This document shows positions 2,395 through 44,496 of a stretch of 64,000 nucleotides of DNA, piece after piece. The stretch spans positions 6 through 64,005 of the IMG/VR virus record IMGVR_UViG_3300035492_000411. One strand, written 5' to 3'. The DNA comes from a virus. A program made the translations under genes and the position numbers. Every line of letters begins with the position of its first letter. Positions within the stretch are counted from its first letter, which is position 1. The notes beneath the pieces are model-generated. The model was not told the origin of the DNA. It saw nothing but the letters and a program-made list of their open reading frames with translations, and ran no database searches.

Positions 2395-2435
2395 AGTTTT
2401 GGCCACCATCCGGTGGCGGCCAAGCTCTACAGGGG
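2395..2435 (-). promoter_or_regulatory. Late promoter copy 1 (lysis cassette)
   Basis: CCCCTGTAGAGCT-N22-AAAACT. Confidence 0.7.
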
Positions 2436-2440
2436 TTTGG

Positions 2441-5400
2441 TTATTCCTCGAACACGCCGCGCACCCTGGCGAAGTCCTCCCTCAGTTGCTGGCGCATGGC
2501 GCGCGGCGCGGCGTCGGCGATGCGCTGATCTTTCGACTTGCCCATCTCGCGCACGCGGCGCATTACGTCAGGCACGCTGATCAACATAGGCTGATCCGGG
2601 TTTCTGGCATTCCAGTCAGCTACCGCGTCGCGCGCCTCCTGCACCTTGGACGGGTCTTTCTCAAACACGCCCTGCGCCCACAGCGCGCGAATCTCTTGGG
2701 CGCGCATGCTGTAGAACGCCTTGCTGCGCTGGCCCAGCCAGTTGGCTTCCTGAATGGATGCCACGCTCTGCGGCTGGAAGCCGATGGCTTTCAGTGCCGC
2801 CTCCAGGGTGCTGGTTTCGAGCACCTTGTACCCCTTGTCGTCCCGGTACATGCCGGTGGCAGCCATGTCAGCGCCCTTCGCCAGGTTGCGCACGGCCGCC
2901 GGCGACATCTCCAGCAGCCCGCCCCCTACTTCCCCGCTCGCAACCTTGTGCGCGCCAGAAATCATGCGCTTGACCAGATCGCCAGCCGGGCCGGCAATCT
3001 CCAGCACGTCGCGCGAGTGGTCGTCGCGCTGCTGTAGCAGGCCGGTGCCAGGGATCAGGTTGCCCATCCCCAGGCGCCCGGACACATCGAGCGGAGCGCC
3101 TGGCAGGCCGGTGATGCCTTTGTCGATGAAGCGCGCGATGTCGTCGCCGAATACGTCATGCAGGAACTGCTCTTTGGCCTTCTGCGTGGAGAAGTTGTAG
3201 CCGGCGAGCTGCGCCATGCCGTCAATCAGGTCTTCGGCATCCTCGGCGAACGGCAGGCCGCCCGCGCCGCTCAGCAGCAACAGGGTGGCGAGCATCAGCA
3301 GCGCCGCCTTGCGCCCGTCCTTGCGAGCCTGGCTGCCGGCTTCGCCCTGGTTCCACAGGCGGTGCATCAGCTCCAGGTAGGCAATGGAGTAGGTCTTGAA
3401 GGTCATCAGTGTGCCGCCGACTGCGCCACGGCCCCAGCGCATCTTCGAGGCTTTCGAGTAGATGAATTGGGTTTCTTGCACAGCCAGGCGAGCAAAGGCT
3501 TCGGGGTCGGCAGCGCCATCTTCCTTGGCGATCCGATAGGCGGCAATGAAGGTCATTCGACGGTTCACTTCCTCGGCCGAACCGAACAGCTTGCCCCAGG
3601 CTAGCGACAGGCGGGCCAGCGAGTTGGATGCCAGCGCGCGAGCGTCACCGGAGCGGGTGCCGTCACCGGCTCGCAGGCCGCCCGTGCCGCTGGCCTGAGC
3701 CATCAGTTGGTGAACCTCCTGCGGACTGACCGTGCCGTCTTCCTCGGCCAGGTGCAGCGCCCTGGCCAGATCGGCCTCGTACTGGTGGCCCTTGGTCGCC
3801 ATCTGCCGAGCGGCCTTGCCTAGCTCCTTGGCCGCCCGCTTGGCGCCGCCGTACTGGCTCAACCAGGGGAACGTCACCGCTACCGGCTGCGTCATGTTGA
3901 CGAACGCCGAGGCCACCGAGCCGCCAAGGTACTGGGCAAACAGCAGCCCACGCAGCGCTTGCGCTTCCTCCTGCGGGTTCTTGATGTATTCGGCCAGGCG
4001 CACGGCCGCGTCTTTCAACTCGCCCTGCTCCTGCGGGATCGCGTTGACCGACTCGGACAGGTCGCCCATGTTCAGGCCGGCAGCGGTCTGGCGGGCATTG
4101 GAGTAGACGAACGAAGCCAGCACGCGGCCCACGTCCTCGCTGTAACCGGCGATGCCTTTCCGATGGATCAGGCGCTTCATCGCGGAACGATTGGTCTTGG
4201 TCAATTTCAGATAGTCCTGAAACACCTTGTCCCGCGCGCCGTCGCCCGACGAATCAAGGCCCATCGCGTTGCCGAACAGCTCCAGGGTTTCCGGGGTGAT
4301 CCCGGCGAACAGCTTGAAGGCTTCTTCGGACAGCGTGCCCTGGCTGACGGTCGAGCCTGGGAAAGCGGCTCTCATCTGCTCGGCCATCAGATTGGCTTCG
4401 CGCTTGGTTTCAAACAGGCTGAAATACTGGCGCGCGCCATCCTCCCCAACCACGTCCACGGTGAACTTGCCGAAGCGTGACAGCGGCGCATAGCCCTCGG
4501 CCTGCAGTTGCGCGACCCGCTCGGCTCGATCATTGATACCCTTCGCCGCGTCCATCAGTTGTGCGGCGCGCTCCGGCTGATCTTCGATCAGTTCCGCCAG
4601 GTGCTCTTGCAGGATCAGGCTGGCTTCCTTCGCGTCGGCAGCATCCATCACCCGCTCGCGCATGGCCTTAACGTCGTCACCGCCAAAGCGCAGCATGTCC
4701 GACCGCGCCATCGTGTCCAGGCTGCGATTGATGGCTTCACGGAACTCGCGGTACAGCTCGATCTGCCCATCGCTCAAGCTCCACATCGAGCGGAGCTCGG
4801 CATCCGTCCAGACGATGCCAGGCTTGCGCTCGGACGATTCGTCTACGCGCACAGGCTTGCCGTCTTCGTCGCGCGCCCACATCAGCGTGCCCTCGAAGAT
4901 CGGCGCAGCAATGGCCTTGTTGTCCTTGTCCTTCACCGGCGACTTGGCGATGTCGCGCAAGGTTTCCAGTTTCGGCAGCAGCTTGGGCGCCAGTTCGGCA
5001 GCATCGCTGGCGTAGTGGCTCACGTCGTCGATAAAGCCCTGCGCCGCTTCAAACACCGGCTTGAAGTGCGGCGAGCGCTGCGCCAGGTTGTACATGGTGC
5101 CCACGGTCTTATGCCACCAGCTCAGCCCGCCCGGCGCCGAGAACGTGCGGTTTAGCTCCTGGGTGGCGCGGCTGGCCATGTCGCGCACTGCGGAACGGCT
5201 GAACCGGATGTCCGGGTCAAACTCGTCGAACGCGCCGCTGTTGTCGGTGGCCGACTTCACCTGATAGTTGTTGAAGGCGATCCACACCGGCGTGCCTTTC
5301 AGGCGGATGCCGTCATAGCCCTGCTGCTCAAGGCGCGTGCGCAGGCGACGAGCCTCCAGCGGGCTTTCCACCTCCTGAGATTCCTCCACGCTCATCAGGT

Positions 5401-8400
5401 AGGGGTTCTGGATCGAAGCGTACAAATCCATGACGCGGCCATAGCCCGGCATGCCGTCGCTGGCCTTCTCCGCGTAGTTCTGCGCAGCGCGGCGGTCGGA
5501 CGACATGAAAATGCCCAGCGCCGACGTGGCATGGCCGGTGGCTGAGCCGGCACGGGACTGGTCGAACACGGTGAAGTCAGCGGCGGTGCCGTGGTACAGG
5601 CGCAGCGGCTCGCCGCCGGCGCCAACTACCTGGCTCTTACCGAACCAGCGCTTGAACGCCTCGCCCGTGGTCTGCAGCGGGCGCAGGCTGAAACGAGGGG
5701 CTCCCCTGGCCGAGGAAGGCGCCAGCGTAGACGCATCCCGCATGCGCTTGAGCAGCAGCGCAGTATCCGCATCTGTGCCCTTGGCCAGGCTGGTAAAGCC
5801 ATGATTGCGCAGCCACTCGCGGATCGCGCCCAGGTACGCCCTGGCGGCGGCAGCGGCGCGCTGGGTAAGGCTGGCGGTGGCCGCCTTGCCCTGCAGGTGC
5901 GCCAGCAGCTCGTCGGCCAGGTAGCCGGCGCGCTGCCGCTCACCCATATTGGCGGCGGTTTTCAGGTACAGGCTCATGTCAATGTCGTGCTTGGCGGCCA
6001 GCCGGCGCACGCCGGCCACCCCACCAATCGCGGCGAAGAACTCGCGCAGCGCCGCGTCAATGGCCTGCCGATCACCGCTGAACAGCGCACGGACGCCATA
6101 GTGGCCCTGCCCTTCGTGCGCCAGCGCATCCACAATCGCCGACTCTACGTCTACACTGCGCGCAAATGCACTGGTGACTACATGGACTTTACCGTTGTGA
6201 TATACGGCATTTATCTGGCCCTTGGCCTGATCATTCTCTGCCTGCCGCTCTATCTCTGGCGCCGCAGCGAAAAGCTCCGCCTCGCTTCGATAGACCGCGA
6301 GCTGTGTGCCAAGGTTGAGGCGGGAATTGACCCTTTCGACGATGGCTTTTACTGCATCATGCGAAAGGACGGGCGTTGCTCCTCGGGCTACATTGACCGG
6401 CCGCCGGCTGAATAGCACCTCGTCCTTGCCCGCAAAGGCTTTGTCGTACTCGGCATAGAGCTGGTCAACCGCCTCCAGGCGCTGATAGCGGCTGTCCAGC
6501 CAGGTCGATAGCTTGTGCTCCAGCACGCCGTCGCCGGTTTTCTCATACAGCGCCTTGAGCATCCCTTGTAGGAAATTCTCGTCCTCGCGGCTGTAGTTGT
6601 TCGCTGCGACACGCGCCCGCACGGCAGCACGACGCGCGCTGTCGGCGGTGATGCCCGAGGTGTCGGTGGCCGGCTTGTCGATCACCACCATGCGCGCGTT
6701 GACGGCGGTGTTGACCGGCAGCGCAGCATCCATAAAGGAGTTTTCCGGCAGGCGCTCGCTGGTCGCGCCCAGGTCATCCAGCCAGGCACGGAAGCCCTCG
6801 GCGGCGCTGTTGCTCTGGAAGAATGCGCCCTCACCCATGATCGCCACCAGGCGCCCGCCCGGCTTGAGCAGGCTATAGGCGTGCTGGACGTGCTGAATGT
6901 CACGGCCCTTGCTGAACGGCGGGTTCATGATGATGCGGTCGTAACCGCTCCACGAGCCGCGCTGCTCGATGCCGGTCAGCTCGTCACGGTCGTACCAGCC
7001 GAGCATCTTGCCTTCGCTGCCATCCTCGTTGATCGCGTGCAGGCTCGCGCGACCACTCCACGCAGCGCCACCGTGCATGATGCCCTTGGTGCCATCCGGC
7101 GCCTGGAACACGTCGCCAAAGGTGTAGAAGCTGCGCGGCTGCATGGCCATGAAGTCGTCGCCGACCAGGTGGTAGCCCTTGGCCTGGAGCAGTTCGCGGC
7201 GCTCGCCGGACAGCTCCACCACGTCAGGCTCCACGCCGGTTTTCTCGCGGATCGCGTCGGCGATATGGCCCATGCCGGCGGACGGCTCCAGTACGCCCAT
7301 GCCTTCCTCGATTTCAGCCGCCTCTAGCATGGCGTCTACCACTGCCTCGCTGGTCGGGAAGAAATCGAGCCCGTCGCTGCGCCGGCCAATCATGGCCCGC
7401 TCCATCTGCTTGATCTTGTCCGGGGTGGCCATGGCCTGCTGCAGGTCGGCGAACTCGCGCAGGGCGGCGCGATACTCGCTGCCGGTGTAGATGCCCATGC
7501 CTTCCAGGCGCTTGCGCTTGGCGTGGACGGTTTCGAGCTGCCACGGCAGCTTGATCTTGCTGCCGGCGCGGCGCCCAACGGCCTCAACAATCTCCCGGCC
7601 AAATTCGCCAGACAGGCCAATATGCTTGTCGTCTCCCTGCCAAATACCCTGCTTCATTGCCTCGGACGGCGACAGTACGATACGGTTCACCCCTCGTTTG
7701 AGCGGCAGCACGATAGCTCGGTCGCTCAAGTTCGAGCGGCGGATGGCCCGCTCTGCATCGTCGCGGCTGGTGAACTCGGCGAACTGCTCGCCACGGGCGA
7801 AGCGGCTCACACTCAGCAAGTTATTCTTCGCCCACTCCACATAGGCGTCACTCACGTCGTCGGCCACCTTGAGCAGGCGCTGGCCCAAGTTTTTCAGGCC
7901 GTCCACTTCGATCATCTGGCGGGCAATGCCGGCCAGGTCGGAGCGCATGCCGCCATAGGTCGGGAAGGTCGAGTAATCGACAGTCTCATCGTCAATCGGC
8001 TGGCCACGGTGCCGCTCTTGGTCGGCATAGCTCGGGTACTTGGCGCGAATCTGCGCGTCCTTGGCGTTGCGCAGTTCGGCATTCAGGAACTCGACTTGCA
8101 CCTTCTGGCGCACCAGATCGAGGAACTTGGCTTTGCCGGCCTCTATGGCGTCGGCGATGTTGCTCATGGTGCCCGCCAGCGCTTTGTTGGCGTTGGCGGC
8201 GCCTTCGGCGGCCGAGGCCATGCGCGCCCGGCGCGCGGTGTTGACTTTGCGATCCCGGCCCAATTCCTCGTCGGCGCGCTCATTCAGCGCTGCGGCCATG
8301 GTGCGCAGGCGCTCAACGGCCGATTGGCTGCGGTCGTCTTCAAACGCATCGCGGCGGGCCTGGGCGACTTCCTGGGCCGCCTCGGTGTCGCCGGCCACCA

Positions 8401-11400
8401 GCTTGCGGAACGCTTCGGCCGCCTCGCGGGTGCGGAACTGGAAGCCAGGAATGGCGCCATTGCCGCGATAGCTGCTATAGCTGCCGCCCATGCGCTTGGC
8501 CGAGTTGTTCAGGGTGTCGTAGTCCTCACGGCTTACGCGCTCCTCCAGCTTCATGACGTACAGGTCATGCCCGTGCTTGGTGTGCTTGGTGGCAATCACC
8601 TCGCCGGCGGTGGTGTTGCCGGCACTGGCAATCTTGGTGCGCTGCTTGGCCTTGGCCTGGTCGCGCGCCTCGCGGGTGCTCTCGGCCTCCAGGGCATCGT
8701 AGCGGCGGCGCTGCTCGGGCGTCAGGCGTAGGTACGCCTCGCGGCGCGTCTCGGCGTGGCGCTCGGCGTTGTAGGTGATCGCGCTGCGGAACTCGGCCAG
8801 CGTCTGCGGGTCGGTCAGCGCCTTCTGCGTGGCCTCCTTGCGCGACTCGCGCTCTTTGCGCAGCTCGGCCACCTCGGCCGCGTACTGGCTCAAGGCGTCG
8901 GCGTCGGTGCCGGCCACCAGATCGCGCAGCGCCTGGGCCTTGGCCTGGCGGTGCGACTCCATGCCGGCCGCCGTCATCATGTAGCTGGTCGGGCCGTAGG
9001 ACTTGCCCAGCGCGTACTCGTCCAGCATCGAGCGATACAGCGCCTCAACCACGCGGTCTTTCTTCTCGGACTTGTAGCGGTGGTAGAAGTGAACGCCGCC
9101 GGCGCGCAGCAGCTTCTCCTTGTTCATGCTGTTCAGCTCGGCCAGGATCGCCTCGCGGTTGCCCTCGACCTGAGCGAAGGCTGCGCGGAACGCCTCGGCC
9201 TCGATCTTGCCGTCGCGCGCCTGCTCCATGGCAGCCTCATGGGCTTGCAGCAGCGGGATCGCGCTGTCTGCCTTGGCCGGCGCCTGTTCTTGCTCCTGCG
9301 CATCCTGGGCGGCCTCGGTGGCGGCCTCCGCGCGCACCGCGTCCACCAGTTCGCGCACTCGGCGCTTGGACTCGGGCACGCTTTCGCCGCGCTTGCGGTT
9401 ACGGAACAGGGCCGCCAGGTCGAACTTGTCGTCGGTCAGGGTGCTGCCGTCGGTAGGCTTGAGCTTGATGCTGGTCGGGTAGCCGTCGCGGCCCTTGTTC
9501 ACGCCATCGAGCACGGCGGTTTTGGTGATCGCCACCGGCTCGCCGCCCTTCTTCCACGACAGAATCTTGCGCATCAGCGTCAGGTCGGCATCGCGCTCTT
9601 TCTGCGCCTTGTCCTCGCGGGCCTGGTCGGCGGCGGCCTGGTCAGCTGCTTTTTCGTCCTCGGTGCGCGCATCGAGCGCTGCCTTGCGGGCCTTGTGCGT
9701 GTTCGCGCTCTGCCAGGCGGTGAAGGTTTCAATCGCGCGGTCGTAGGCGTTATTACGCTGGTTGGCCTGCTTGCTGTTCAGCCCAGACCGCCCCGCCACA
9801 TGACCGCTGTAGGTGCCGGCGCGGACGCTCATCAGGCGGCGATAGTTGGCAAGGTACTCGACGCGCAGATCGGCGACCGCCTGAGCGACCGCCGATTTCT
9901 GTGCGTCGGTGTGCGCTACAGCCATGCCCGACTCGCGGGCGTCGTCGATGTAGCGCGCGTATTCCTCGGCATCGGCCTTGGCTCGGGCGCGGCCGCTGTG
10001 CGAGATACCCGAGTAGCTGTCGGCGGCCTCTTTCAGCGGGAAGTCGGCGGCGGCGTCATCCTGGGCGGCGTCGGCCGGCTGTGCCGTGGCAGCCTGCTCC
10101 ACCTCGCGGATCAGGTCGGCCATAGCCTTGATGCCGTGAATGCTCGGGTGCTGGCCGCGCCAGTTCCCGGTATTGGTCAGATACCAGCCAGGCATATCCT
10201 GGCGAACCGTCCAGTCCTGGCCGTCGATGCTCACCACGTCGCCGTCAAGGTAGGGGTTGAACATCGAAACAGCTTTCGGGTCGCGGCGCGAACCCGCGCG
10301 CTCAGCCTCGGCGGCCTGGGCCTTGGCAGTCGAGCCGATAATCGGCTGATTACGCAGGCTCTCGGTCGCTCGGTAAATCATCTGCTCGCGGGTCAGCGCA
10401 TAGCTCAGCGGCTTGTCATCGGCCTTCTTCCACGTCGCCGGGACGGTTTGATCGTCAGGGACGAACCGGGCAATGCCGTTACGCCCGTTCGCTTCGGGCA
10501 GCACATGCAGATACAGCGGCGTCTGGTTGGTGAGCTGGACAGGTGTAATCGCGTTCACGGCATCGGTGGCCAGCATGCCAGATATGGCGCGGTAGGCGTC
10601 CACCTTGCCCTCACGCTGCTCCTTGGTCAGCGCGATGCCTTCCTGCGGCAGTTCGGTATGCCACATTTGCGGCGCCGCGTCAGCCTCCACCGGCTCGACC
10701 TTGCCCACCGGCCCAGCTTTCAGTTCCCGAGCTTCCGGCAGGGTCGAATGGTTGCGCTCGCGCTCGCCGGGCTTGTCGATCCACTCGCCGCCCTGCTTGA
10801 CCACCGCTCGCACGGTAACGCTCCAATGGCCGTCCTTGTCCGGCGCCTGGTAGCTCACCACCCGGTCGAAGTTGCCGCCGTAGCTGGGCACCACGTTGCC
10901 CGGCGCGAAGTAGTCGGCTACGGCCTGAGCCTTGGCCTCGGCCGCCTTCTCCATGACGCTGCGCTTGCTCTCGGGCTTGGCAGCTGGCGTGTCCGTCACC
11001 GCTTCCAGCTGAATGCGCCGAGCCGGGTGCTCGCTAAACCGCTGCTTGAACTTGATCGCCTGGTCTTGCGTCATCGGCTCACCGAACGATAGGTGCTCTT
11101 TAGCGCCGGTGCGTTCGTTGATAGCGACCACTTGGAAGCGCGCAGCGGCAGCGCCGCTCTCTGCCTTCACCTCTTTGGCGCGCTCGATCACGCTCTTGGG
11201 CTTCACCTCGGCCTTGCCGCTGGCCTGCATAAAGCCGCGAATCTCGGCCGGCGTGCGGGCATCCTCCTTCATGCTGATCGGGCTGAGGATGCCGACCAGT
11301 TCGCCATTCAGCCGCACCTGCAAAGCGCTGTAGTCGCCGCGACTGTTCGGCTCGCCGGCGAAGAACTCCGCGCCCTTGAACTTGCTCAGGAAGTAGCGGA

Positions 11401-32095: not shown

Positions 32096-32119
32096 TGCAC
32101 ACTCCTGCGCGCAGGCGCC

Positions 32120-34194: not shown

Positions 34195-34218
34195 GGGGAG
34201 TCCTACTCCTGCGGGATG

Positions 34219-34244
34219 AGAAAGAGCCGGCGAAGGGCCGGCTC
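34219..34244 (-). terminator. Intrinsic terminator after the cement gene
   Basis: GAGCCGGC-CCTTC-GCCGGCTC followed by TTTCT. Confidence 0.6.
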
Positions 34245-34253
34245 TATCAGGGC

Positions 34254-34727: not shown

Positions 34728-34789
34728 AAAAGGAGCCTCGTCTGAGTGAAGGAATGGGCGGGGTTAGCCGCCCATCGCGTCAGGGTGGG

Positions 34790-36082: not shown

Positions 36083-36095
36083 GCTCGTGCTCTCC

Positions 36096-37121
36096 TTAGA
36101 GGTTGTTTAGCCAGGCTTCCATCTGCTCGCGGGACATGGAATCCATGTTCTGCAAGAGCTCGAAGCCTTCCATATGAGCCAGCGCTTCATCTCGACCCAC
36201 TCCAGCCGAACGGCCACCGGCAATGTCGGTTAGGCTGTTCGGAACCGGCGCGGTCGCTTGTGCGGCGGCCTGCTGTGCTTTGGTTTTCACATCGGCCGCA
36301 GCCGATGCACCTGGTTGAGTTACACCTGTGGCCTGCTTGAAGGCGTCGAACAGTTCAATCACCTGCCCGGTGCTGCCCTGCTTGAGCACGGCGGCGTAGG
36401 CATCACGCGCGTAGGAGGGCTGCGAATTGATCCAGTCGGCCAGCTCCCTGCTCTCGACAATGGAGTCGGCGTCCGGGTGCGCCTCGTAGATGGCGGCGTA
36501 GTGCTGATTGGTGAGCTCGCTCGCCTGCTTGGCCTGGATTGGCTCCAGCGCCTTGCTTACCCTCGCCTCCACCTGGCTTGCCACCAGCGTGGCGATACCC
36601 TTCGCCAGCGCCTCCTCGGAGAAGTCCCCGAAGATCCCCGGATCGACGCCCTGGTCGATGGCCGCTTGCGCTGCCGCCACCTGGTTGTCGGTCTTGGTCG
36701 GTGCCTCGCCCGCCTCGGCACGCGCTTGAGCTTGAGATCGAAGGCTCTCCAGCTCGCGTTGTGCCGCTGCCGCTCGTTCCTCTGCCGCTTCACGCAGCGC
36801 GCGCTCGGATCTTGCCTGTTCGCGCGCCTCGGTCAGGCGGTCAAAAGGAATGGTGTGCTTGCCGTCCTTGGTCAGGACTACGGTGTTGTCGGCATTCAGC
36901 TCAGGCTCCTGGCCCTTCTGCTTGCCTTCGTCCGCAGCCTCACTGTTCGCGCTCTCGGCCTCTTTTCCACCATGCGCCTGGGCAGCCTCGGGCTGTGCTG
37001 CCTGCTCCGACGACAATGCGCCGGTATCGCCCTGTCCCAGCCCAAGGAGCTGGTCTAGTTGCTCGGGGGAAATCTCGCCGTCAAGCGACTCGATGAACTC
37101 GTTTTCCTGATCGGTATTCAT
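36096..37121 (-). CDS. Capsid scaffolding protein
   Basis: Acidic, coiled-coil, IPFDRL motif, precedes the capsid gene. Confidence 0.75.
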   Translation of the reverse strand: MNTDQENEFIESLDGEISPEQLDQLLGLGQGDTGALSSEQAAQPEAAQAHGGKEAESANSEAADEGKQKGQEPELNADNTVVLTKDGKHTIPFDRLTEAREQARSERALREAAEERAAAAQRELESLRSQAQARAEAGEAPTKTDNQVAAAQAAIDQGVDPGIFGDFSEEALAKGIATLVASQVEARVSKALEPIQAKQASELTNQHYAAIYEAHPDADSIVESRELADWINSQPSYARDAYAAVLKQGSTGQVIELFDAFKQATGVTQPGASAAADVKTKAQQAAAQATAPVPNSLTDIAGGRSAGVGRDEALAHMEGFELLQNMDSMSREQMEAWLNNL

Positions 37122-37221: not shown

Positions 37222-37262
37222 AGTGTGGAAACGAGAGGGAGAAACACCTAGCCCTACAGGGG
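37222..37262 (-). promoter_or_regulatory. Late promoter copy 3 (scaffold/capsid)
   Basis: CCCCTGTAGGGCT-N22-CACACT; extra partial palindrome CCTATAGG at 37270-37277. Confidence 0.7.
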
Positions 37263-37304: not shown

Positions 37305-38660
37305 CTATTCCTTGTAGCGGATCAGGCTGCGCGGATCGGCAATCGGACGCAGCTCGACAGCGCCGATGCTGAGCGTGCCAGTGCCGGCCTGCGCGTTGTT
37401 GGTCTTGATCTGCGTGCGCCATTGCAGCGTGCTCGCAGCGTCGATGATCTGGAAGGGCGGGGTTTCGATCACGCCGCTCCAGGCTTCGGCAGGCCAGGCG
37501 TCCGCGTTGTAGTCCTCCATGCCGTAAGCGATGATTCCGCCCGTAGCGCCGTCGCGCAGCATCTGCGTGATGCCTTGCCAGCCTGCCCAGGCGCCGCAGT
37601 CCACTTCTACCGAGGCGCGCACCCAAGTGCCGACCGGCAGGTTATGCGCCACGCTGGTTACTGCGGTCTGGAAGTAGTAGAGGTCGGTGCCGGCTGCGCC
37701 GCTTGGCGTGATAACCAACTGCTGCGCATTGCCGCGCCCGTTGCTGCGAGCGACCTTGCTGCACGCTACTGCGCCCGCGCCTGACTGGCGAACCACCCGC
37801 ATGTTGTCCGCAACCGACCCCGACGCTCCGGTGCCGACCGTGCCCGCCGTACCGGAAAGCATAGGGTTGGGCATCAGGTTGCCGCGCGGGTTGAGGGTGG
37901 CGTCGTACAGGTCGTCGGGCGCCACAATTGCGCGCTGGCGAGGAACAAGGAAGCCTTTGAGCGCGTTGCCGAGTTCCTTGCCAACTTCGTAGGCGGAGAT
38001 AGTGCTGAAATGCGTGCCGTCCGGGCTGTAGCCGGCCTTCGGGCTGCCGTCGGCGCTGTTGAAGTCTACCCACGGCTTGTTCCAGTCCAGGCTGTAGCAG
38101 CCATTTCGCCCAGCAACATAGTCGAAGCCCTGCTGGTTCACCCAGTGGGCTTTCTTGCGGTAGCCAGACGCGACCGACCAGCTCGACGTGCTGCGGGCCA
38201 GGATCGGCAGCAGCACGACCTTCTTGCCCAGCGCCAGGTAGAAGTCCACCAGCGCCGCGCGCATCTGGTGAATGTACTCCTTGGTCTGCGTGGGAATGTC
38301 GTTGGTGCCGCCGTCGATCACGACCACATCGCACTCTACGTTGGTCGCCAGGTAGAAACGCCGATTCCATATCTCAGACAGGACGGCGCCGCCAATGCCG
38401 GCATTCAGCCCACGGAAATACACGGTGCCAACGCCATCAGGCTCCCAGCCCGCGCGCACGGTCGGGTCATACCAGGCTGGCATGTCGAACAGCCCAGGAT
38501 TGAGCGTGCGCGCCCAGTTGAGCGGGCCTTTCGACCATGTGGATAGCTTGAATGAACTGTTAGCCGTGTGGTGATGCTGCATCAGCGACGTGCCGAGCAG
38601 AGCCACGCGGTTGCCGCCGCCAGCAACGGGCGCGGCCTTTGGGTTGAGTAGTAGGCTCAT
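37305..38660 (-). CDS. SGNH/GDSL esterase with a C-terminal CBM-like domain
   Basis: Blocks GTSL, NAGIGG, GGTND, DGTH. Confidence 0.85.
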   Translation of the reverse strand: MSLLLNPKAAPVAGGGNRVALLGTSLMQHHHTANSSFKLSTWSKGPLNWARTLNPGLFDMPAWYDPTVRAGWEPDGVGTVYFRGLNAGIGGAVLSEIWNRRFYLATNVECDVVVIDGGTNDIPTQTKEYIHQMRAALVDFYLALGKKVVLLPILARSTSSWSVASGYRKKAHWVNQQGFDYVAGRNGCYSLDWNKPWVDFNSADGSPKAGYSPDGTHFSTISAYEVGKELGNALKGFLVPRQRAIVAPDDLYDATLNPRGNLMPNPMLSGTAGTVGTGASGSVADNMRVVRQSGAGAVACSKVARSNGRGNAQQLVITPSGAAGTDLYYFQTAVTSVAHNLPVGTWVRASVEVDCGAWAGWQGITQMLRDGATGGIIAYGMEDYNADAWPAEAWSGVIETPPFQIIDAASTLQWRTQIKTNNAQAGTGTLSIGAVELRPIADPRSLIRYKE

Positions 38661-38887
38661 TCGATTGAATACTCCGCGCCGCCAGTGGGGGTGAAGCGCA
38701 CCGGGCCAAGCCCGAAGTTCATCAGGTGCGCGCCGTCTGCAGCGAATGTGTCGGCAACTATCCAGTTGTCACCCACCCGCTTCTCTACCGCGAGCGAGCC
38801 GCCATTGGCGCGAACGATCAGTAGGCGCCGCTCCTCGCCTTCGGCGTATGTCTTTTCGGTTTGCGTGGTGATCTTACGGTTGGACAT
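38657..38887 (-). CDS. Small beta-rich protein coupled to the SGNH gene
   Basis: 76 aa, AAGGAG SD, ATGA overlap. Confidence 0.7.
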   Translation of the reverse strand: MSNRKITTQTEKTYAEGEERRLLIVRANGGSLAVEKRVGDNWIVADTFAADGAHLMNFGLGPVRFTPTGGAEYSIE

Positions 38888-38956
38888 CGTAAATCTCCTT
38901 GGCGGCCAGCCTTCTGCCGCCTGTCAGTCAGTGGTTCATTGGTTCCCTTGCGCCGC

Positions 38957-39451
38957 TCAGTCGGCGCGCTCGCTCTGGCAGGCCGCCACGCTCTCGCTCG
39001 ACAGCAGCGGCACATTTGCGGCATGCGCCAGCACAGTGGTGTCGTGCTCCAGTTCCAGCGGCACGCCATTGACCTTGATCACCGCGCCTCGATTGAGGAA
39101 CAGGCGCACACGCGGATCGCTCGCAGCGCAGGAGCCGCAGCCGGAACAGGCTTTCGCCTCGGCGGCCTCGCTCTTGGCCGCCTGGCCCTGCTGGTAGGGC
39201 ATCCACTCGGCGTAACCGGCATTGTCGCGCACGCTGTCGCCAGCCTGGAGCAGGGTCACGCTGCGCTTCTCGTGAGCGCCGCCGCCGTGGTCGGTGATGA
39301 GCAGATTGATCATGCGGTCGCTATGCACGAACACCACTTGCGCGGTGAACGGCTGATCGCTGCCTGGGTAGGCGAACATCCCGGCTTCAATGTCCTGGGT
39401 GCTCGGCCAGTACCAGAGAACGCGGCCAACGGTGGGCTTGATGATCGGCAT
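38957..39451 (-). CDS. Hypothetical phage protein (IKPTVGRV.WY type)
   Basis: Start MPIIKPTVGRVLWYWP with AAGGAG SD; CSGCGSC linker. Confidence 0.75.
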   Translation of the reverse strand: MPIIKPTVGRVLWYWPSTQDIEAGMFAYPGSDQPFTAQVVFVHSDRMINLLITDHGGGAHEKRSVTLLQAGDSVRDNAGYAEWMPYQQGQAAKSEAAEAKACSGCGSCAASDPRVRLFLNRGAVIKVNGVPLELEHDTTVLAHAANVPLLSSESVAACQSERAD

Positions 39452-39465
39452 GCGGTGACTCTCCT

Positions 39466-39692
39466 TTAGCTCTTGCGGTAGTAGCGCGAGCCGAACAGGC
39501 GCACGCCGATAAACATGGCCAGGCCGATGGCTCCGGCGAGCAGGCTCATAGCGCCGCTTCCGCCACTGCTGGCTACGCATGACAGCAGGCCAAGGTCGGC
39601 CTCGTGCGGCCGATCTGCGCGGCGTAGGCCACGTCATGCGCCTGGCAGCAGGTCGCCCACCAGCCCTCTGGGAAGTGCGTGCAGTAGTCCAT
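39466..39692 (-). pseudogene. Phospholipase A2-like gene with a 1-nt frameshift
   Basis: MDYCTHFPEGWWATCCQAHDVAY.. continues after a frame shift near 39605 as EADLGLLSCV..MFIGVRLFGSRYYRKS*; span 227 nt. Confidence 0.65.
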
Positions 39693-39866
39693 CTACTCAG
39701 CCTCCCGTGGGTGCGCGTCGATCTCGGCGCGGATTTGCTCGCGCCGCTCGATGCTCATGTCCTCCCGCTGAGCGAGCAGGGTCAGCGCCTGCTGGTACTC
39801 GGCCTGGGTAAATGGGCGGTGGTACTGGTGGCCGGCTGGCGTGCAGCCACGGCATGGCTCGCTCAT
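39693..39866 (-). CDS. Hypothetical 57-aa protein
   Basis: MSEPCRGCTPAGHQYHRPFTQAEY..; ATGA overlap with the portal stop, stop abuts the next ATG. Confidence 0.6.
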   Translation of the reverse strand: MSEPCRGCTPAGHQYHRPFTQAEYQQALTLLAQREDMSIERREQIRAEIDAHPREAE

Positions 39867-42127
39867 ACCGGAGCCCCCAGGTTGTCGGCCGGGGTTGCCG
39901 TCTCGATGCCCTGCTGCCCAGTGCCGGCCACGGCCGGGAACTGCGGGCTGGTGTTGGCTGGAGCCTCGATGCCTGCGTCACCTCCAGCGGTCACGGCGCC
40001 CTCACCCTGCACATAAGGCGACGCGATGTTCATGGCGGCGGCCTGCTCGGGCACCGGGAAGTTCGGGTCTTGCCCGCCTGGTTGGTTCTGGAACCCGGCC
40101 GCCTGCATCATCTTGTCGGCGATGGGCGCGATCATCGGCATCTGCGCCACCTGGGCGCCGCCCTGCATGCTGGAGAACATCGCCTGGATCAGGGTCAGCA
40201 CGGTCTTGGCGTCCATGCCGCGCATCTCGCTAGCCTGCCGCTCGGCTTTCAGGTCGAGCTCGCGCTGCTTGATGTCGTTGCCGGCGTCCTTGAGCGCCTG
40301 CTGAATCTGCTGCTCGATCTGCTCCGGGGTCTGCTGCTGATCCACGGCGCGGATAGCCTCGACCACATCGCGCTTGAACGGCACGTCCATGAGGCTGACC
40401 AAGAACGGCAGCACGGCGGCCTGGTACTGCTGCGGCATGGCCTTGACCGCCTCGCTCATCGCGTTGAGCTGCTGGCCACGGTAGGAGTTGGTGGACGGCA
40501 CGTCTTCCAGGGCGACCTTGAGGCGGGTGCGCTGCAGGTCGTTTGACAGGTACGGGTAGCCGCGCTCGTCCACCTCCGGCTTATTGATTTGCACGGTGCG
40601 GTCAGCGGTGACGGCATCGCCCTCGATGATGATGGTGGCCGGCTCGCTGCCCATGTCCTCGACTATCATCGCCAGCAGCAGCTCACCGATCAGCGACCGG
40701 GCGGCGCGGAAGTTGTCCATGATGTGGCCGAGCGACTGATTGCTCTGCTCCACCTGCGTCTGCTCCTGCAGGCCCGACCTTGCGGTTCCGGCCTTACCCA
40801 TAAAGCCGCTGGTGATGCCGGACACGCGCTCAAAGGTGGCGCGGTTGTCGGCCAGCATCTGGTGGTGCTGATCGGTCAGCGTGTAGTCGCGTTTGACCTC
40901 GAAGCGCGAGCCTTGCTGCGCCATGTGCTGGTGGTTGAGCACAATGTCGGCGTCAGGCCGCGCGATCTGCCGGCGCAACTGGGCGTCAGTCATGTCGGTG
41001 GCGCCTGCGGTACGCTCGACGCGCACCACATTCATGCCCCAGCGCAGCTTGCTGATACCGCTGTTGAGACTGTCCTGGGCGTACTTCATGCCGCGCACAT
41101 AGCCATACGGCACGCCAGTCGCATCCTCACGGAAGCCGAAGAAAGGGGCGTAGGGGAAGTGCCGGTGCGTGTACGGCGTCGGGCCGTCGAACAGGCGGTG
41201 CGGGCCGAGCCAGTATGAGCGCCGCACGCGGGCAATGGTGGCCTTCTGCGCTTTGGCTGCCCCGCTCGCTAGCGCTACCTGGTGCTGCAGGTTCTCGGGG
41301 TCGTACTCGACCACGCGCCCGTTCGGTGTCTTGATCACCAGCACGCTCACCCAGCGCCGATACCAGACCTCAGCCAGGCAGACTTCGCGGGTGGTCGGGT
41401 TGAACCAGCGGTCTTCCTGCATCGTCCAGGCTCGCGCCTCATCCCAGGCATTGTTCAAGCCGGTGCTTGCGCCTCCTTCGCTGTACAGGCTGTCATCCAT
41501 CCACCAGCCATTGCCGCCACGGCCGCATGCCTCGATCAGCGCCTTATGCTGCGGGAAAGTCTCGGCCACGCGCTCAGGCAGCAGCCAGCGCTGACGGCGG
41601 AGCCAGCGGCATTGCTCCCAGTCGTCGCCACACTTCATGTCCCAGTGCATTTCGTTGCGATGCACGGCGCTGACGCGATACGGGTAGCGGATCGGGTCGG
41701 GATCGCGGGCCACCTCTACCCAGCCGATGCCGCAGGCGATCTGCGGGCGGAATGCCTTACTGCATGCTCGATCAGCCTTGCTCTCGCGCTCGGCCTGGTT
41801 GAGCTTGAAATTCAGCGCGTCGGCCACGTCCTGGCCGCCAGGATCGCCGTTCGGGGTGACGCGCCAATCGGTGCGCGTGGTCGATTCGTAGCCCTGCAGG
41901 CTGAGCAGGGTTGGGCCGATCATGTCCTCCACTGCAGGCGGTATGCCCAGCTCGGCCTGCCGGCGCAGCAGGTCGGAGTCGAGTTGGTTGCCGTCGGCGT
42001 AGTCCATCTCCTTGTCGGCAATGGCGCGCCAGCGCGGCTGCAGCTCAATCTCGTCGCAGAGCTCCTGATACTCGCGCAGCGATAGGGCCAGGTCATCGGT
42101 GGTCTGGTTCATGGTTGGTGTCCTCAC
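39863..42127 (-). CDS. Portal protein (P22-like)
   Basis: 754 aa after terL; DYADGNQ, CGIGWVEV, FPYAPFFG, Q..LN..ISK motifs. Confidence 0.9.
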   Translation of the reverse strand: MRTPTMNQTTDDLALSLREYQELCDEIELQPRWRAIADKEMDYADGNQLDSDLLRRQAELGIPPAVEDMIGPTLLSLQGYESTTRTDWRVTPNGDPGGQDVADALNFKLNQAERESKADRACSKAFRPQIACGIGWVEVARDPDPIRYPYRVSAVHRNEMHWDMKCGDDWEQCRWLRRQRWLLPERVAETFPQHKALIEACGRGGNGWWMDDSLYSEGGASTGLNNAWDEARAWTMQEDRWFNPTTREVCLAEVWYRRWVSVLVIKTPNGRVVEYDPENLQHQVALASGAAKAQKATIARVRRSYWLGPHRLFDGPTPYTHRHFPYAPFFGFREDATGVPYGYVRGMKYAQDSLNSGISKLRWGMNVVRVERTAGATDMTDAQLRRQIARPDADIVLNHQHMAQQGSRFEVKRDYTLTDQHHQMLADNRATFERVSGITSGFMGKAGTARSGLQEQTQVEQSNQSLGHIMDNFRAARSLIGELLLAMIVEDMGSEPATIIIEGDAVTADRTVQINKPEVDERGYPYLSNDLQRTRLKVALEDVPSTNSYRGQQLNAMSEAVKAMPQQYQAAVLPFLVSLMDVPFKRDVVEAIRAVDQQQTPEQIEQQIQQALKDAGNDIKQRELDLKAERQASEMRGMDAKTVLTLIQAMFSSMQGGAQVAQMPMIAPIADKMMQAAGFQNQPGGQDPNFPVPEQAAAMNIASPYVQGEGAVTAGGDAGIEAPANTSPQFPAVAGTGQQGIETATPADNLGAPV

Positions 42128-43749
42128 AGGCGCCAGTCAGGCGCCTCGGCTTCTACATAGGTGGATGGCCTGGTGGTGGCGGTGTGCAGCATCCCCAGCT
42201 CCTTGGCTTGCGCCCACTGGCGGAAGGCGTCGGCGCCTTCGCTGCAGCCGTTGCTCTTGTCCGGCTGGTCGGTGTAGCGGTTGTCTGCGCGGCTGAAGCG
42301 CTTGCGGTAGCCCTCCAGGCGCTGAATGCCCTTGGCGCAGCCGGTTTCGTCGATCCAGGCGGCCTTCATGTGCTTGCGCACCTGGCTGACGCCCGTGACC
42401 AGCTCAGTGATCAGCGGCACGATGGCGAATCGCTCGCCCGGCATCAGGTCTTGCAGCATCTCCATCGTGCTGCGGTTGTAGTCCGAGAGGCGCTTGTGGT
42501 TGGCGTCATGCGGCAGGTAGTGAGTGCCGAACACATAGCCCTTCTCGCGCAGCTCGCGGACGTAGTGGCGCAAGTCCTCGCCGTGCGCCTCGTAGTAGCT
42601 GATGAAGCGATCCTCGCCGCGCAGCTCTTGGTGGAACCAGATCGCGCAGCCGTCGCTGTTGCCGATGTCCCAGAAGGTGTTGACCGGCATATCCAGTTCC
42701 GGCACGCGGCACACGCCGCCGCGCTTGCGCAGGGCCAGCATGTCCTTGGCGTACCAGTTGCCGACGGTGCTGACCTGGAAGGCTTCGGATGGGAAGGACG
42801 GGTACTCCTGCCACATCTTCTCTTCGGCGCCGGAGAAGTCGGCGCGCTTCGTGGCGACGTACCAGGCGCGCTGATCCGGGTCGATGGTGATGCGCTCGCC
42901 CATGTCGCGCAGGACGGTGGCCTCAACCAGGTCGAAGTATTCGTGTTCTTCCTGGGTAATCTCGACCGTGGACGCATCCATGCGGTACTTCGGCTCTTGC
43001 CACCAGGCGTAGAAGTGCATGCGGTAGTCGCGCGCGGTGAGCTTCTTGCGGCTGGCGTGGTTCGCCTCGGCAATGCCGACCATCTTGAAGAACTCGCCTT
43101 CGCGTCCTTCCGCCGTGCTCTCGATCACCAGAATGCCGTTGGTGGGCACGGCCGGGATGGAGCCGGTGACGACCTCCTGCGCTTTGTCGGGGAACTTGGC
43201 GCAGATTTTCCCGAACTCGGAAACGTGCAGGCGGTGGATCGTGCCCGAGCGCATCGACGTAGCCACGCGGACGCTGCTGTTGTTGTGCGCGAATAGCAGC
43301 TCGGTGGCCGAGTCGCGCGCTAGCGGGAAACGCTCGCGGATTTCATCGGGCAGGTTGGCATAGGCGAACTTCACCTTGTCGCGGAAGATCGCTTCGGCCG
43401 CCTCCCGGTCCTGGGCGATGATCCCGCAGCGCTGATCGCCGTTGAACAGCGCGTGATCCAGCCACATGATCGCAATTAGCGTGGTGAAGCCGAGCTGTCG
43501 CGCCTTGAGGATCAGGTTGCGGTGCCAGAGCCTGCGGATAAAGCGCTTCTGCGCGCGGTTGGGCCTGAACGGCAGGACAAAGCTGTCGCCTTCCTCGATG
43601 CTGCCGTCGGCGCCGATCTTGTCATCGCCCTTGATCATGATCTTGTACAGGCAGCCGCTGAACAGGCGCCACTCAGGGTCAGCCAGGCAGCGCGCAAGCT
43701 CAGCCGCATCCGTGGGCAGCGGTAGCAGCTCCTGGTCTTGGACGATCAT
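42124..43749 (-). CDS. terL: Terminase large subunit
   Basis: LKARQLGFTT Walker A, LHVSE Walker B, ESTAEG, WDIG nuclease Asp. Confidence 0.95.
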   Translation of the reverse strand: MIVQDQELLPLPTDAAELARCLADPEWRLFSGCLYKIMIKGDDKIGADGSIEEGDSFVLPFRPNRAQKRFIRRLWHRNLILKARQLGFTTLIAIMWLDHALFNGDQRCGIIAQDREAAEAIFRDKVKFAYANLPDEIRERFPLARDSATELLFAHNNSSVRVATSMRSGTIHRLHVSEFGKICAKFPDKAQEVVTGSIPAVPTNGILVIESTAEGREGEFFKMVGIAEANHASRKKLTARDYRMHFYAWWQEPKYRMDASTVEITQEEHEYFDLVEATVLRDMGERITIDPDQRAWYVATKRADFSGAEEKMWQEYPSFPSEAFQVSTVGNWYAKDMLALRKRGGVCRVPELDMPVNTFWDIGNSDGCAIWFHQELRGEDRFISYYEAHGEDLRHYVRELREKGYVFGTHYLPHDANHKRLSDYNRSTMEMLQDLMPGERFAIVPLITELVTGVSQVRKHMKAAWIDETGCAKGIQRLEGYRKRFSRADNRYTDQPDKSNGCSEGADAFRQWAQAKELGMLHTATTRPSTYVEAEAPDWRL

Positions 43750-44447
43750 TCGTCATCGCCCTTGGCGTGGTCGGGGTCGTCAGCGACCGGCGCGAAAGCG
43801 TTGCCGTTGGTCTTGGCGATGGCGTGCAGCAACGCAGTGAGCGGGTCGGTCTTCTGCTCGTTGTCGCGCTCGTACAGGCCCAGGTGCTTCATCAGGCGCT
43901 CAAGGTTGGCGCCCTTGTCTGTGAGCTTGTACTTCTTCAAGTAACCAGCGAACTGGCGGTCTTGCCCTGATCCCTCGAACTGCTCGATCACGTCCATGCC
44001 GGCCAGTGCAGCCGCCGTGTCGTCGTCCAGCTCATGGATGCCAAGCGGCGAACCGTCATCGCGGAAAAACTTGCGCGGATCGTAGAAGCTGAGCCGCGCC
44101 ACTTCCAGCAGCACGCGGTCTGCGGTGATCTGCGTCCGCTCCTGCTGCCTTATGCGGGCGGCGGCGATGGCTTCCTGAATGTTTAGTTTTGTTAATAGCT
44201 GACTGGCCATAGAGCGCGCAGACTTCTGGCTGTAGCCGGCACGGATTGCTGCCTGGGTCGCATTCAGGTCTACGAGGTACTCTTGGACAAACGCTTGCTG
44301 CTGGGGGTTGAGCTTGGCCACTGCCTGCTCCTGCGCGTGGTCGTCATCGGTCAGGCGTGCGGAACCGCCAGCGGAGCGCGGTGGCTTCGCTGCGGTCGCC
44401 TTCTTGCTGGTGGTAGAGCGCTTGGGCTCTTGGGGTTTCCTGGCCAT
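43746..44447 (-). CDS. terS: Terminase small subunit
   Basis: FVQEYLVDLNATQAAIRAGYSQKSA. Confidence 0.93.
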   Translation of the reverse strand: MARKPQEPKRSTTSKKATAAKPPRSAGGSARLTDDDHAQEQAVAKLNPQQQAFVQEYLVDLNATQAAIRAGYSQKSARSMASQLLTKLNIQEAIAAARIRQQERTQITADRVLLEVARLSFYDPRKFFRDDGSPLGIHELDDDTAAALAGMDVIEQFEGSGQDRQFAGYLKKYKLTDKGANLERLMKHLGLYERDNEQKTDPLTALLHAIAKTNGNAFAPVADDPDHAKGDDE

Positions 44448-44455
44448 AGGCGGCC

Positions 44456-44496
44456 AGTCTTGGGAGGCAGGGCCGGGTTATCCAGCCCTATAGGGG
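44456..44496 (-). promoter_or_regulatory. Late promoter copy 4 (terminase operon)
   Basis: CCCCTATAGGGCT-N22-AAGACT, 8 nt before the terS ATG. Confidence 0.72.

Follow-up and report, generated by a model that had tools for sequence, protein, structure and literature searches.

The window analyzed here is a stretch of 64,000 nucleotides out of a full provirus record of 64.4 kb, and its minus strand carries four groups of late genes. The packaging operon (37305..44447) and the head/tail morphogenesis operon (19924..37121) were identified through PHROG matches. The former contains terS (43746-44447), terL (42124-43749), the portal gene (39863-42127), and genes for a 226-aa protein (38957-39637) and a lipase-like protein (37305-38660). 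The latter contains a scaffold-like gene (36096-37121) and the major head protein gene (34790-36082), and virion/tail protein genes ending with that of a 631-aa protein (19924-21819). The giant-protein operon (2441..19145) encodes an 849-aa protein (16596-19145, with its ATG at 19145) and a 4722-aa giant protein of the virion/ejection type (2441-16609), whose homolog 8P_023 is annotated as a structural protein. The lysis cassette (1072..2341) encodes a holin (2093-2341), an endolysin (1575-2096), an i-spanin (within 1072-1695), and an embedded o-spanin lipoprotein (1131-1340). All of these genes are on the minus strand, and a DUF4124 gene (19319-19921, plus strand) is counter-oriented beside the promoter site of the giant-protein operon. 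On the other side of terS, O/P-like genes are followed by ninB, ninG, a presumed regulator gene, and terS itself. The candidate regulator gene, which encodes a 160-aa winged-helix (wHTH) protein (44839..45321, minus strand), comes after ninG, and its other neighbor is an ORF of 111 aa (44507-44842) without family assignment that adjoins the promoter site of the packaging operon. The phage also encodes a C5-cytosine methylase.

The terL and portal sequences are 75-79% identical at the nucleotide level to those of phages 8P, F116, phiC725A, and H66. The gene order of the window is common to 8P and F116, with synteny of the terL, portal, major head protein, and giant virion protein genes. Based on this similarity and synteny, the window belongs with the F116-like/Bcep22-like temperate podophages, and it is an F116-like (Hollowayvirus-like) temperate podophage that resides as a prophage in Pseudomonas.

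The motif CCCCTRTAGRGCT has exactly four exact matches on the minus strand of the window and none on the other strand or elsewhere in the 64.4-kb provirus record, while only 0.012-0.014 copies are expected (Poisson P about 7e-10). All four are intergenic and each heads one of the late operons, as the earlier note had observed, and we refer to them as P-pack (CCCCTATAGGGCT, 44484..44496), P-head (CCCCTGTAGGGCT, 37250..37262), P-giant (CCCCTGTAGGGCT, 19213..19225), and P-lysis (CCCCTGTAGAGCT, 2423..2435) after the packaging, head/tail, giant-protein, and lysis operons. The symmetric core of this box is just 10 bp long and its conserved flanks are asymmetric; in P-pack the core is the perfect palindrome CCCTATAGGG at 44486-44495. 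A position weight matrix (PWM) scan of the whole prophage and its relatives had been asked for beforehand. When a matrix trained solely on distant relatives was run over the window, the four boxes were clearly apart from everything else, with scores of 25.6 (P-pack), 27.8 (P-head), 28.7 (P-giant), and 26.9 bits (P-lysis). The next best site in the window scored 9.6 bits and the best in 30 shuffles scored 18.4 bits.

Each box is followed by a -10-like hexamer of the form nAnAMT on the minus strand: AAGACT for P-pack (44456-44461, predicted start 44447-44449), CACACT for P-head (37222-37227, predicted start around 37213-37215), GAACAT for P-giant (19185-19190, around 19176-19178), and AAAACT for P-lysis (2395-2400, around 2386-2388). 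The hexamers match TATAAT at three of six positions, and all four keep the -11A and the -7T. The spacer had been described as exactly 22 nt, which holds for the four sites of the window (4/4) and is relaxed among relatives: of 135 sites, 106 have a 22-nt spacer and 25 have one of 23 nt. The earlier statement that there is no -35 element was inexact. Weak -35-like hexamers with two to four of six matches to TTGACA lie 17 bp from the -10-like hexamer (TTGGCC in P-lysis, TGGCCC in P-giant, TAGGTG in P-head, and TGGATA in P-pack, the last at 44479-44484 on the minus strand), and the last T of the box is the first base of this hexamer. No consensus sigma-70 promoter was found in window bases 1-20000.

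The two-part signal was found at 131 non-redundant sites in about 100 related phage or prophage loci of Beta- and Gammaproteobacteria. The logo of the 131 sites, drawn from 75 viral loci, has two conserved blocks, while the flanks and spacers have diverged. The first block is the box (positions -2 to +13). The second block consists of A35, A37, M38, and T39, and the -11A and -7T of the earlier note are kept here at 83% and 82% of the sites (A35 and T39), whereas A-N3-T has a background frequency of 3.7% at a given single offset. A vestigial -35 (TnGAC, or TnGnC) is also conserved in the logo at the 17-bp spacing. Phage 8P has five sites and F116 has four variant sites in orthologous gaps, where the box and the hexamer are kept and the spacer sequences differ. 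The orthologs of P-pack are upstream of terS in both phages, those of P-head are at 4935 in 8P and 28682 in F116, those of P-giant are at 24358 in 8P and upstream of F116 p58, and those of P-lysis are at 41833 in 8P and upstream of the F116 holin gene.

Motif matches in the relatives are strongly biased to one strand (154 forward vs 20 reverse), and nearly all are downstream of the wHTH gene. When open-frame depth was compared with that at random positions, only 1% of the sites were at least 300 nt inside an open frame vs 44% of random positions (P = 1e-34). The motif is thus not equally frequent inside coding regions, the outcome that the earlier note had named as counting against its proposal. 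In a 4.4-Mb Pseudomonas genome, six out of six two-part matches were in the late region of a prophage and shared the strand with the wHTH gene, as was also true of three out of three matches in a 5.6-Mb Variovorax chromosome. A scan of IMG/VR with the motif only returned 83 stretches.

Two kinds of genes directly after the sites serve as anchors for the start point. Some relatives have a site in front of a stand-alone tRNA gene. In 11 relatives a tRNA gene comes immediately after the site, and there tRNA-Met starts 6-8 nt past the hexamer, at a distance of 45-47 nt from core position 0. At about 35 sites, including those of the window, 8P, and F116, the terS ATG is 7-9 nt after the hexamer and has no Shine-Dalgarno sequence. 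The P-pack arrangement, with ACT and ATG separated by 7-8 nt, recurs in about 35 diverged relatives. Both distances fit a hexamer that acts as a -10 element. In the window, the predicted P-pack start coincides with the terS ATG at 44447, suggesting that the terS mRNA is leaderless or has a leader of 1-2 nt. P-head would have a conserved leader of about 93 nt from its predicted start to the scaffold-like ATG at 37121. With starts taken from the tRNA 5′ ends and terS ATGs, the center of the palindrome would be at about -41.5 to -43.5, which agrees with the position near -41.5 expected beforehand. The geometry would be of the class II type, as the putative activator site is near -41.5 and overlaps a weak -35.

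Two other readings of the motif were rejected. The box contains CTATAGGG, which looks like the core of a T7-type promoter, but no single-subunit RNA polymerase is encoded, and conservation stops short of the sequence upstream of the box. GAACAT or GAACACT resembles an ECF-type -35, but no block is conserved 16-17 nt beyond it, and the terS ATG is already 7-9 nt after the hexamer. Known late regulators were also searched for. The provirus had no match to the lambda Q families (PF03589 and PF06530) or to Mor/C (PF08765), while the Q controls and the Mor/C control genome matched. It also had no match to the Ogr_Delta zinc finger (PF04606) or to sigma-70 region 2 (PF04542). T7-type RNA polymerase (PF00940) was not matched in the provirus either, which is a weaker negative since no control genome matched.

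The candidate reader of the box is the 160-aa wHTH protein. In its AF2 model (pLDDT 83), residues 11-71 form an N-terminal winged helix, residues 81-102 a small beta sheet, and residues 104-158 a long C-terminal helix. Its sole Pfam match is the AbiEi_4 wHTH domain (32.9 bits), and its homologs are labeled as AbiEi antitoxin in GenBank records. AbiEi antitoxins belong to type IV toxin-antitoxin systems of abortive infection, and the likeness is confined to the N-terminal wHTH; the 160-aa protein has no AbiEi C-terminal domain. A full-length AbiEi was rejected, as NCBIfam NF047376 scored 16 bits against a cut-off of 150 bits and there is no adjacent AbiEii toxin gene. Judged by these domain matches, the label is a domain-level carry-over. 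Fold searches against PDB, BFVD, and AFDB clusters returned generic winged-helix regulators only, many of them repressors.

The family has more than 350 sequence clusters, with homologs in both 8P (8P_038) and F116 (gp37). Among 20 long records that came from the motif-only IMG/VR scan and had not been retrieved before, 19 encode a homolog, including all 11 of those at least 90% complete. The other early and regulatory proteins of the window were found near the wHTH gene in only 0-5 of 49 loci, while terL and portal were found in 39-44 of the 49. In these loci, the wHTH gene is the only non-structural (early) gene that is co-inherited with the motif and the late module. The co-occurrence of the box and the wHTH gene is confounded because the whole late module shares ancestry. 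In the recognition helix and wing, the residues D49, D50, R51, R63, Q65, R66, and G67 show little or no variation, in keeping with the invariant box. The residue aligned with position 58 of the window protein changes with the base (C or T) at box position 10, and in a Psychrobacter-type clade R51N is found together with TATAAGG boxes. As the two patterns follow clades, they are not independent evidence. The homodimer prediction scored 0.13 (mark 0.42), which counts neither for nor against the dimeric activator proposed in the earlier note. The 10-bp symmetric core is unusually compact for a winged-helix dimer. The gene is in the slot of lambda Q in the window and in F116. In 8P it is early in the right operon and not beside terS, and therefore this position is not universal. 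From its co-inheritance and its conserved recognition residues, the 160-aa protein is probably the reader of the box.

In the model that we favor, each site would be an intrinsically weak sigma-70-type promoter with a -10-like nAnAMT and a vestigial -35. The putative protein-binding box MCCCCTRTAGGGYT, with its 10-bp palindromic core, would abut and overlap the -35, and host RNA polymerase would fire only when a phage-encoded factor is on the box. This factor is most likely the wHTH protein, whose gene is near the end of the early rightward operon, and once bound it could make contact with the alpha subunit or with sigma region 4. Accumulation of the wHTH protein would then turn on the four transcription units for packaging, head/tail, giant virion protein, and lysis together, and terS would have a leaderless message that begins no more than 2 nt from its ATG. 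The activator-type late promoters of this model, with a palindromic site near -41.5, are strongly supported by comparative evidence: the conserved architecture, strand bias, avoidance of gene interiors, start anchors, restriction to the late region, absence of known regulators, and co-inherited wHTH gene. We give a probability of roughly 0.6 to the reading that the four sites are activator-dependent late promoters most likely read by the wHTH protein. The earlier note had proposed late promoters that are distributed and driven by a phage activator, in place of Q antitermination. This core of the proposal has strong comparative support from the 131 conserved sites, the start anchors, and the lack of a Q homolog, and it stands apart from some inexact details. 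More broadly, the late switch of F116- and Bcep22-like podophages might consist of a new family of wHTH proteins of about 160 aa and a 10-bp palindrome at four to seven promoters, a near-invariant pair around which other early genes are exchanged, and we consider the chances of this to be about even. The switch would fuse a compact palindrome to a vestigial -35, and its products would include a terS mRNA that lacks a leader as well as, in some phages, transcripts of tRNA genes.

The box might instead be read by another phage protein, such as a small unannotated one, or by a recruited host protein. The co-inheritance of the box and the wHTH gene could stem from linkage to the structural module, the palindrome is atypically short for a wHTH dimer, and the family-less ORF at 44507-44842 is right beside P-pack. 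However, this ORF and all other early proteins are missing from 44-49 of the 49 box-bearing loci. If a host factor were the reader, sites outside the prophages would be expected, but the matches are confined to the prophage late region. The hosts span two proteobacterial classes. We consider another reader unlikely.

The wHTH protein and the palindrome could also be a repressor and an operator for the negative control of intrinsically active promoters. The structural neighbors of the protein are mostly repressors (IdeR, Fur, LexA, and IclR), Pfam groups its domain with the AbiEi antitoxins, which are autorepressors, and the -35-like hexamer shares its first base with the box. However, the core elements are poor (3/6 at -10 and 2-4/6 at -35) and no site passes a consensus sigma-70 scan, so there would be little intrinsic activity to repress. 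The box is upstream of the -35 and not over the -10 or the start point, and the PWM scan of the window found no box at the early promoter region at about 48-51 kb. Furthermore, the location of the wHTH gene in the early lytic operon fits an activator that times the late genes. We regard an operator function as quite improbable.

That the sites are not promoters, and are RNA- or DNA-level signals within one long transcript (for processing, put/nut-like antitermination, methylation, or packaging), is very improbable. No terminators were detected between the operons, so read-through is possible, and a palindromic core could suit the C5-cytosine methylase of the phage. However, RNA from the palindrome could form a hairpin of at most 3 bp and matched no Rfam family, and the second block has precisely the -11A/-7T signature, with its distance from the box fixed. 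The predicted +1 coincides with the 5′ end of the tRNA or with the terS ATG, and the strict strand bias and the sites at stand-alone tRNA genes are hard to explain by such a signal. The least probable alternative, to which we give hardly any weight, is that the wHTH protein is a Q-like antiterminator loading at each box-bearing promoter: it occupies the lambda Q slot in the window and F116 and Q proteins too bind DNA next to their promoter, but it has no similarity to either Pfam Q family, the promoters are weak and not constitutive, the sites are dispersed and number four to seven and not one, terS at +1 leaves no leader for a sigma-dependent pause, and no terminators were found downstream.

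Activator-dependent late promoters would be a known kind of phage control, and the version with this box and wHTH protein appears to be new. Phage Mu has middle (Mor) promoters and four late (C) promoters with a recognizable -10, a poor -35, and a dyad activator site at about -43.5, and its Mor/C regulators are small phage-encoded HTH proteins made from the preceding temporal class. The dispersed promoters, poor -35, and site position are similar here. However, there is no Mor/C homolog, the candidate has a winged helix and a long C-terminal helix in place of the Mor/C fold, the box sequence is unrelated, and these phages are podophages of lambdoid organization and not transposable. As with CRP/FNR at class II promoters and lambda cI at PRM, the site would have its center near -41.5/-42, beside or overlapping a weak -35, a place from which an activator can reach sigma region 4 or alpha. 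Such contacts are made by class II activators, by lambda cI at PRM, and by Mu Mor/C. The cI mRNA from PRM is also leaderless and starts at its ATG. The symmetric core is 10 bp here, compared with 22 bp for CRP and 17 bp for cI, and the candidate is from a different protein family with no recognizable effector domain.

The Ogr, B, and Delta proteins of P2, 186, and P4 are also phage activators that serve four late operons with weak sigma-70 promoters. They are zinc-finger proteins that bind TGT-N12-ACA centered at about -55, whereas no Ogr_Delta homolog is present here and the box differs in sequence and position. Lambda Q shares the location of the regulator between ninG and terS. Unlike the Q system, there are four putative promoters and not one PR', no Q homolog, and no leader on which pause-dependent loading could take place. 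The lysis genes, located at the far end, would have their own promoter. In Gram-positive phages, RinA, ArpU, and LtrC are small activators of a tightly regulated promoter directly upstream of terS (PMC3152322). Their protein families and hosts are unrelated to those of the present phages, and RinA-type regulators usually serve a single late operon.

To our knowledge, late-gene control is understood for only a few model phages, such as lambda (Q), Mu (C), P2 (Ogr), T4 (gp55/33), and those with RinA. F116, which infects P. aeruginosa, is a classical generalized transducing phage, and phages of the Bcep22 type have been studied as Burkholderia therapeutics. A literature search on the motif and on the late promoters of F116, Hollowayvirus, and Bcep22 returned nothing relevant and no account of how late genes are switched on in F116 or Bcep22-like phages; the genome papers of F116 (Gene 2005) and Bcep22/BcepIL02 (J Bacteriol 2011) were outside this search. 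Within that scope, the remark in the earlier note that it knew of no description for this phage type agrees with our search. If the model is true, it would give a function to a widespread family of hypothetical or AbiEi-like proteins with its hundreds of clusters. A signature of about 40 bp would mark the starts of late operons, correct start-codon annotations (for example, that of F116 terS), and flag morons that carry their own late promoter. The activator and promoter would also make a simple and probably orthogonal pair across Pseudomonas, Burkholderia-type, and Acinetobacter-type hosts. Relatives of this phage are present as assembled contigs in metagenomic and metatranscriptomic runs, and a relative from wastewater carries the same box.

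The window covers nearly all of a 64.4-kb IMG/VR provirus record, and DNA of this provirus was present in tar-pit metagenome runs. In megablast searches of GenBank phages, terL and the portal gene were 75–79% identical to those of Pseudomonas phages 8P (host P. stutzeri), F116, phiC725A, H66, and others, and 8P and F116 have the same gene order as the window. Judged by this identity and gene order, the window is a temperate podophage of the F116-like (Hollowayvirus-like) type, organised in the lambdoid manner. The minus strand carries the early rightward genes (cro-like, cII-like, O/P-like, ninB, ninG, then the gene of a 160-aa winged-helix (wHTH) protein at 44839–45321 and a 111-aa ORF), the packaging block (terS, terL, the portal gene, and a lipase-like gene), the head and tail block (genes for a scaffold-like protein, the major head protein, and other virion and tail proteins), the giant-protein genes (849 and 4722 aa), and the lysis genes (holin, endolysin, and spanins). 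The leftward early operon includes a C5-cytosine DNA methylase gene (56069–57472, plus strand) adjoining RecT/YqaJ-type recombination genes (53547–54891).

The box CCCCTRTAGRGCT occurs exactly four times in the whole 64.4-kb record, always on the minus strand, where 0.012–0.014 copies were expected (Poisson P about 7e-10). The four copies are thus real and far beyond chance. One lies in the gap ahead of each late gene block, and the putative late promoters were named P-pack (box at 44484–44496), P-head (37250–37262), P-giant (19213–19225), and P-lysis (2423–2435). An earlier note, made from the sequence alone, had placed boxes ahead of these operons, each followed after 22 nt by a hexamer (AAAACT, GAACAT, CACACT, and AAGACT); the exact-match search found precisely these copies, and the spacing was seen at 4/4 sites. 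The weight-matrix scan of prophage and relatives that it proposed was carried out with a two-part matrix trained solely on sites from relatives that share at most 64% identity with the window in the wHTH protein. The four sites scored 25.6–28.7 bits, against 9.6 bits for the next best position (128 kb, both strands) and 18.4 bits for the top of 30 shuffles.

The two-part signal is conserved in relatives. Phage 8P has the box at all four orthologous gaps and at a fifth place ahead of a CsrA-like gene, while F116 has the variants CCCCTGTAAGGTT, CCCCTGTAGGGTT, CCCCCGTAGGGTT, and CCCCTGTAAGGAT in the four corresponding gaps. In each of these phages 22–23 nt separate the box from a hexamer of the window's type, and the spacer sequences have diverged. 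The fifth 8P site lies at 9838–9920 of the 8P locus; its window counterpart is a 145-nt gap (32554–32699) with no CsrA-like gene. Since the 8P gene has a box and the window lacks both, accessory genes can, this suggests, arrive carrying their own late promoter.

A wider set was fetched through the wHTH protein family and comprised 75 viral loci and 25 bacterial genome loci, with hosts from Pseudomonas, Thauera, Azoarcus-type genera, Methylotenera, Acinetobacter, Psychrobacter, Alkanindiges, Variovorax, Ottowia, and others. Non-redundant sites in the viral loci numbered 131. When aligned by their core, they formed a first block (positions −2 to +13, M-C-CCCTRTAGG-G-Y-T-n-G), whose symmetric core is 10 bp with asymmetric flanks, and a second block of A35 (83%), A37, A/C38, and T39 (82%). 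This latter block is the −11A/−7T signature of a sigma-70 −10 element and matches TATAAT at only about 3 of 6 positions; all four window hexamers keep these two bases, as the earlier note states. Loci without the exact box had near variants such as CCCTCTAGGG, scored by the matrix at 16–22 bits on the right strand. A spacer of exactly 22 nt, as claimed in the earlier note, holds at all four window sites but not throughout the relatives, where it was 22 nt at 106/135 sites and 23 nt at 25/135 (background of A-N3-T, 3.7% per offset). The claim that these sites have no −35 element did not stand. Positions 11–16 (T-n-G-A-C-C) resemble TTGACA at the ideal 17-bp distance from the −10 element, with a mean match of 2.95/6 (background 1.41) and at least 4/6 matches at 31% of sites versus 2.6% of background. 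The window hexamers match TTGACA at 4, 2, 3, and 4 of 6 positions, and therefore the −35 element is vestigial rather than absent.

Several lines of evidence suggest that these sites very likely are promoters. There were 154 matches on the late-gene strand versus 20 on the opposite strand, the latter mostly identical, perfectly palindromic sites read in reverse, and nearly all matches were downstream of the wHTH gene. The earlier note had named equal frequency of the motif inside coding regions as an outcome that would count against promoters; instead, only 1% of sites had a plus-strand frame that stayed open for 300 nt or more in both directions, versus 44% of random positions nearby (P = 1e-34). 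Two independent landmarks coincide with the predicted start. In 11 relatives (L047, L049, L052–L055, L062, L071, L074, L075, and L079; about 10463–10586 in most) a site stands just after the wHTH gene and directly before tRNA-Met. In these relatives the promoter is 25 nt past the wHTH stop codon, and tRNA-Thr, -Tyr, or -Gly often comes next. The mature 5' end of tRNA-Met is 45–47 nt from core position 0, that is, 6–8 nt past the hexamer; as translation signals are absent from tRNA genes, the constancy of the distance points to transcription. Likewise, the terS ATG is 7–9 nt past the hexamer at about 35 diverged sites, including P-pack (ATG to hexamer, 44447–44461, minus strand), 8P (across the record end and start), and F116 (22729–22778). 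This gap has no space for a Shine-Dalgarno sequence, which implies a leaderless terS mRNA. The RefSeq terS start of F116 (CTG, 22851) is 75 nt downstream of an in-frame ATG at 22776; the annotated gene is probably too short, and ATG 22776 fits the promoter geometry. If the start is at positions 46–48, as predicted from the tRNA ends and terS ATGs, the centre of the palindrome (position 4.5) is at −41.5 to −43.5, in agreement with the −41.5 proposed before.

The reader of the box seems to be phage-specific. In a 4.4-Mb Pseudomonas genome and a 5.6-Mb Variovorax chromosome, 6/6 and 3/3 matches to the two-part pattern fell within the prophage, on the strand of the wHTH gene and downstream of it; the box is therefore not part of a host regulon. 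Among the proteins of the provirus there is no lambda-type Q (two Pfam families), Mor/C, Ogr/Delta, sigma-70 region 2, or T7-type polymerase. No consensus sigma-70 promoter was found in window bases 1–20000. The wHTH protein, our candidate late activator, belongs to a family of more than 350 sequence clusters that includes 8P_038 (61% identity) and F116 gp37 (42%). Its AF2 model (pLDDT 83) has a wHTH at residues 11–71, a three-stranded sheet at 81–102, and a 55-residue C-terminal helix; fold searches returned generic wHTH neighbours only. D49, D50, R51, R63, Q65, R66, and G67, in the recognition helix and wing, are invariant or nearly so, in parallel with the near-invariance of the box. GenBank homologues (e.g. 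BK061585, BK061591) are labelled 'AbiEi antitoxin of type IV toxin-antitoxin system'. This label looks like a misnomer, because the match is limited to the N-terminal winged helix (Pfam AbiEi_4, 32.9 bits), the full-length AbiEi model was not reached (16 bits vs a 150-bit cut-off), and no toxin gene neighbours the wHTH gene.

A motif-only search of IMG/VR found 83 stretches. A wHTH homologue was encoded in 19 of the 20 long records new to that search and in 11/11 motif-selected records at least 90% complete, the lone exception being 59% complete; these co-occurrence counts are confounded by descent. Apparent covariation between wHTH residues and box variants tracks clades. In the 49 loci that extend a full 10 kb to either side of the wHTH gene, terL was nearby in 39 and the portal gene in 44, versus 0–5 for other early or regulatory window proteins. 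The early module is thus freely exchanged, and by this count the wHTH gene remains linked to the late module and boxes.

The wHTH gene sits in the genomic slot of lambda Q, but by the above tests its product belongs to none of the Q, Mor/C, Ogr, and AbiEi families. Functionally, the closest systems are the Mor/C-dependent promoters of Mu, where a poor −35 goes with a dyad at −43.5 and the late promoters number four; class II activation and lambda cI at PRM are also close. In the favoured explanation, the sites would form a conserved set of activator-dependent late promoters switched by a candidate new wHTH activator family, a full chain to which we give a probability of roughly 0.6. The searchable literature gave no account of the box or late promoters for F116-like or Bcep22-like phages, though the F116 and Bcep22 genome papers may mention the repeat.

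The P-head leader (roughly 93 nt, 37121–37215, minus strand), before the scaffold-like gene, is more conserved than coding DNA. It has counterparts in 8P (4979–5078), F116 (about 28726–28790), L009, L056, and L080. The window, 8P, and L056 share without any difference a stretch of about 33 nt that ends at the ATG (GCGGCCACGG...GGGACAGGCATG), and F116, L009, and L080 have nearly the same sequence. A hairpin upstream of it (GCGGAG-YRAT-CCGC) is conserved too. Two hairpins were predicted, without covariation, and the leader had no Rfam match. GGA motifs occur in the leader, and both 8P and F116 have genes for CsrA-like proteins. The leader may be a translational control element.

A degenerate second palindrome, CCCTATAGGT (37269–37278, minus strand), is 17 bp upstream of the P-head box, centre to centre, and may be an auxiliary activator site. 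Tandem pairs of boxes occur in some relatives (e.g. L027 at 19213). The P-lysis spacer (2401–2422, minus strand) contains an inverted repeat, GCCACC GGAT GGTGGC; its counterpart is another inverted repeat in 8P, and F116 has none. Immediately upstream of P-giant is a DUF4124 gene (19319–19921), the sole plus-strand gene of the late region. 8P and F116 keep the promoter at this junction and lack the gene, which was therefore inserted at a pre-existing operon boundary.
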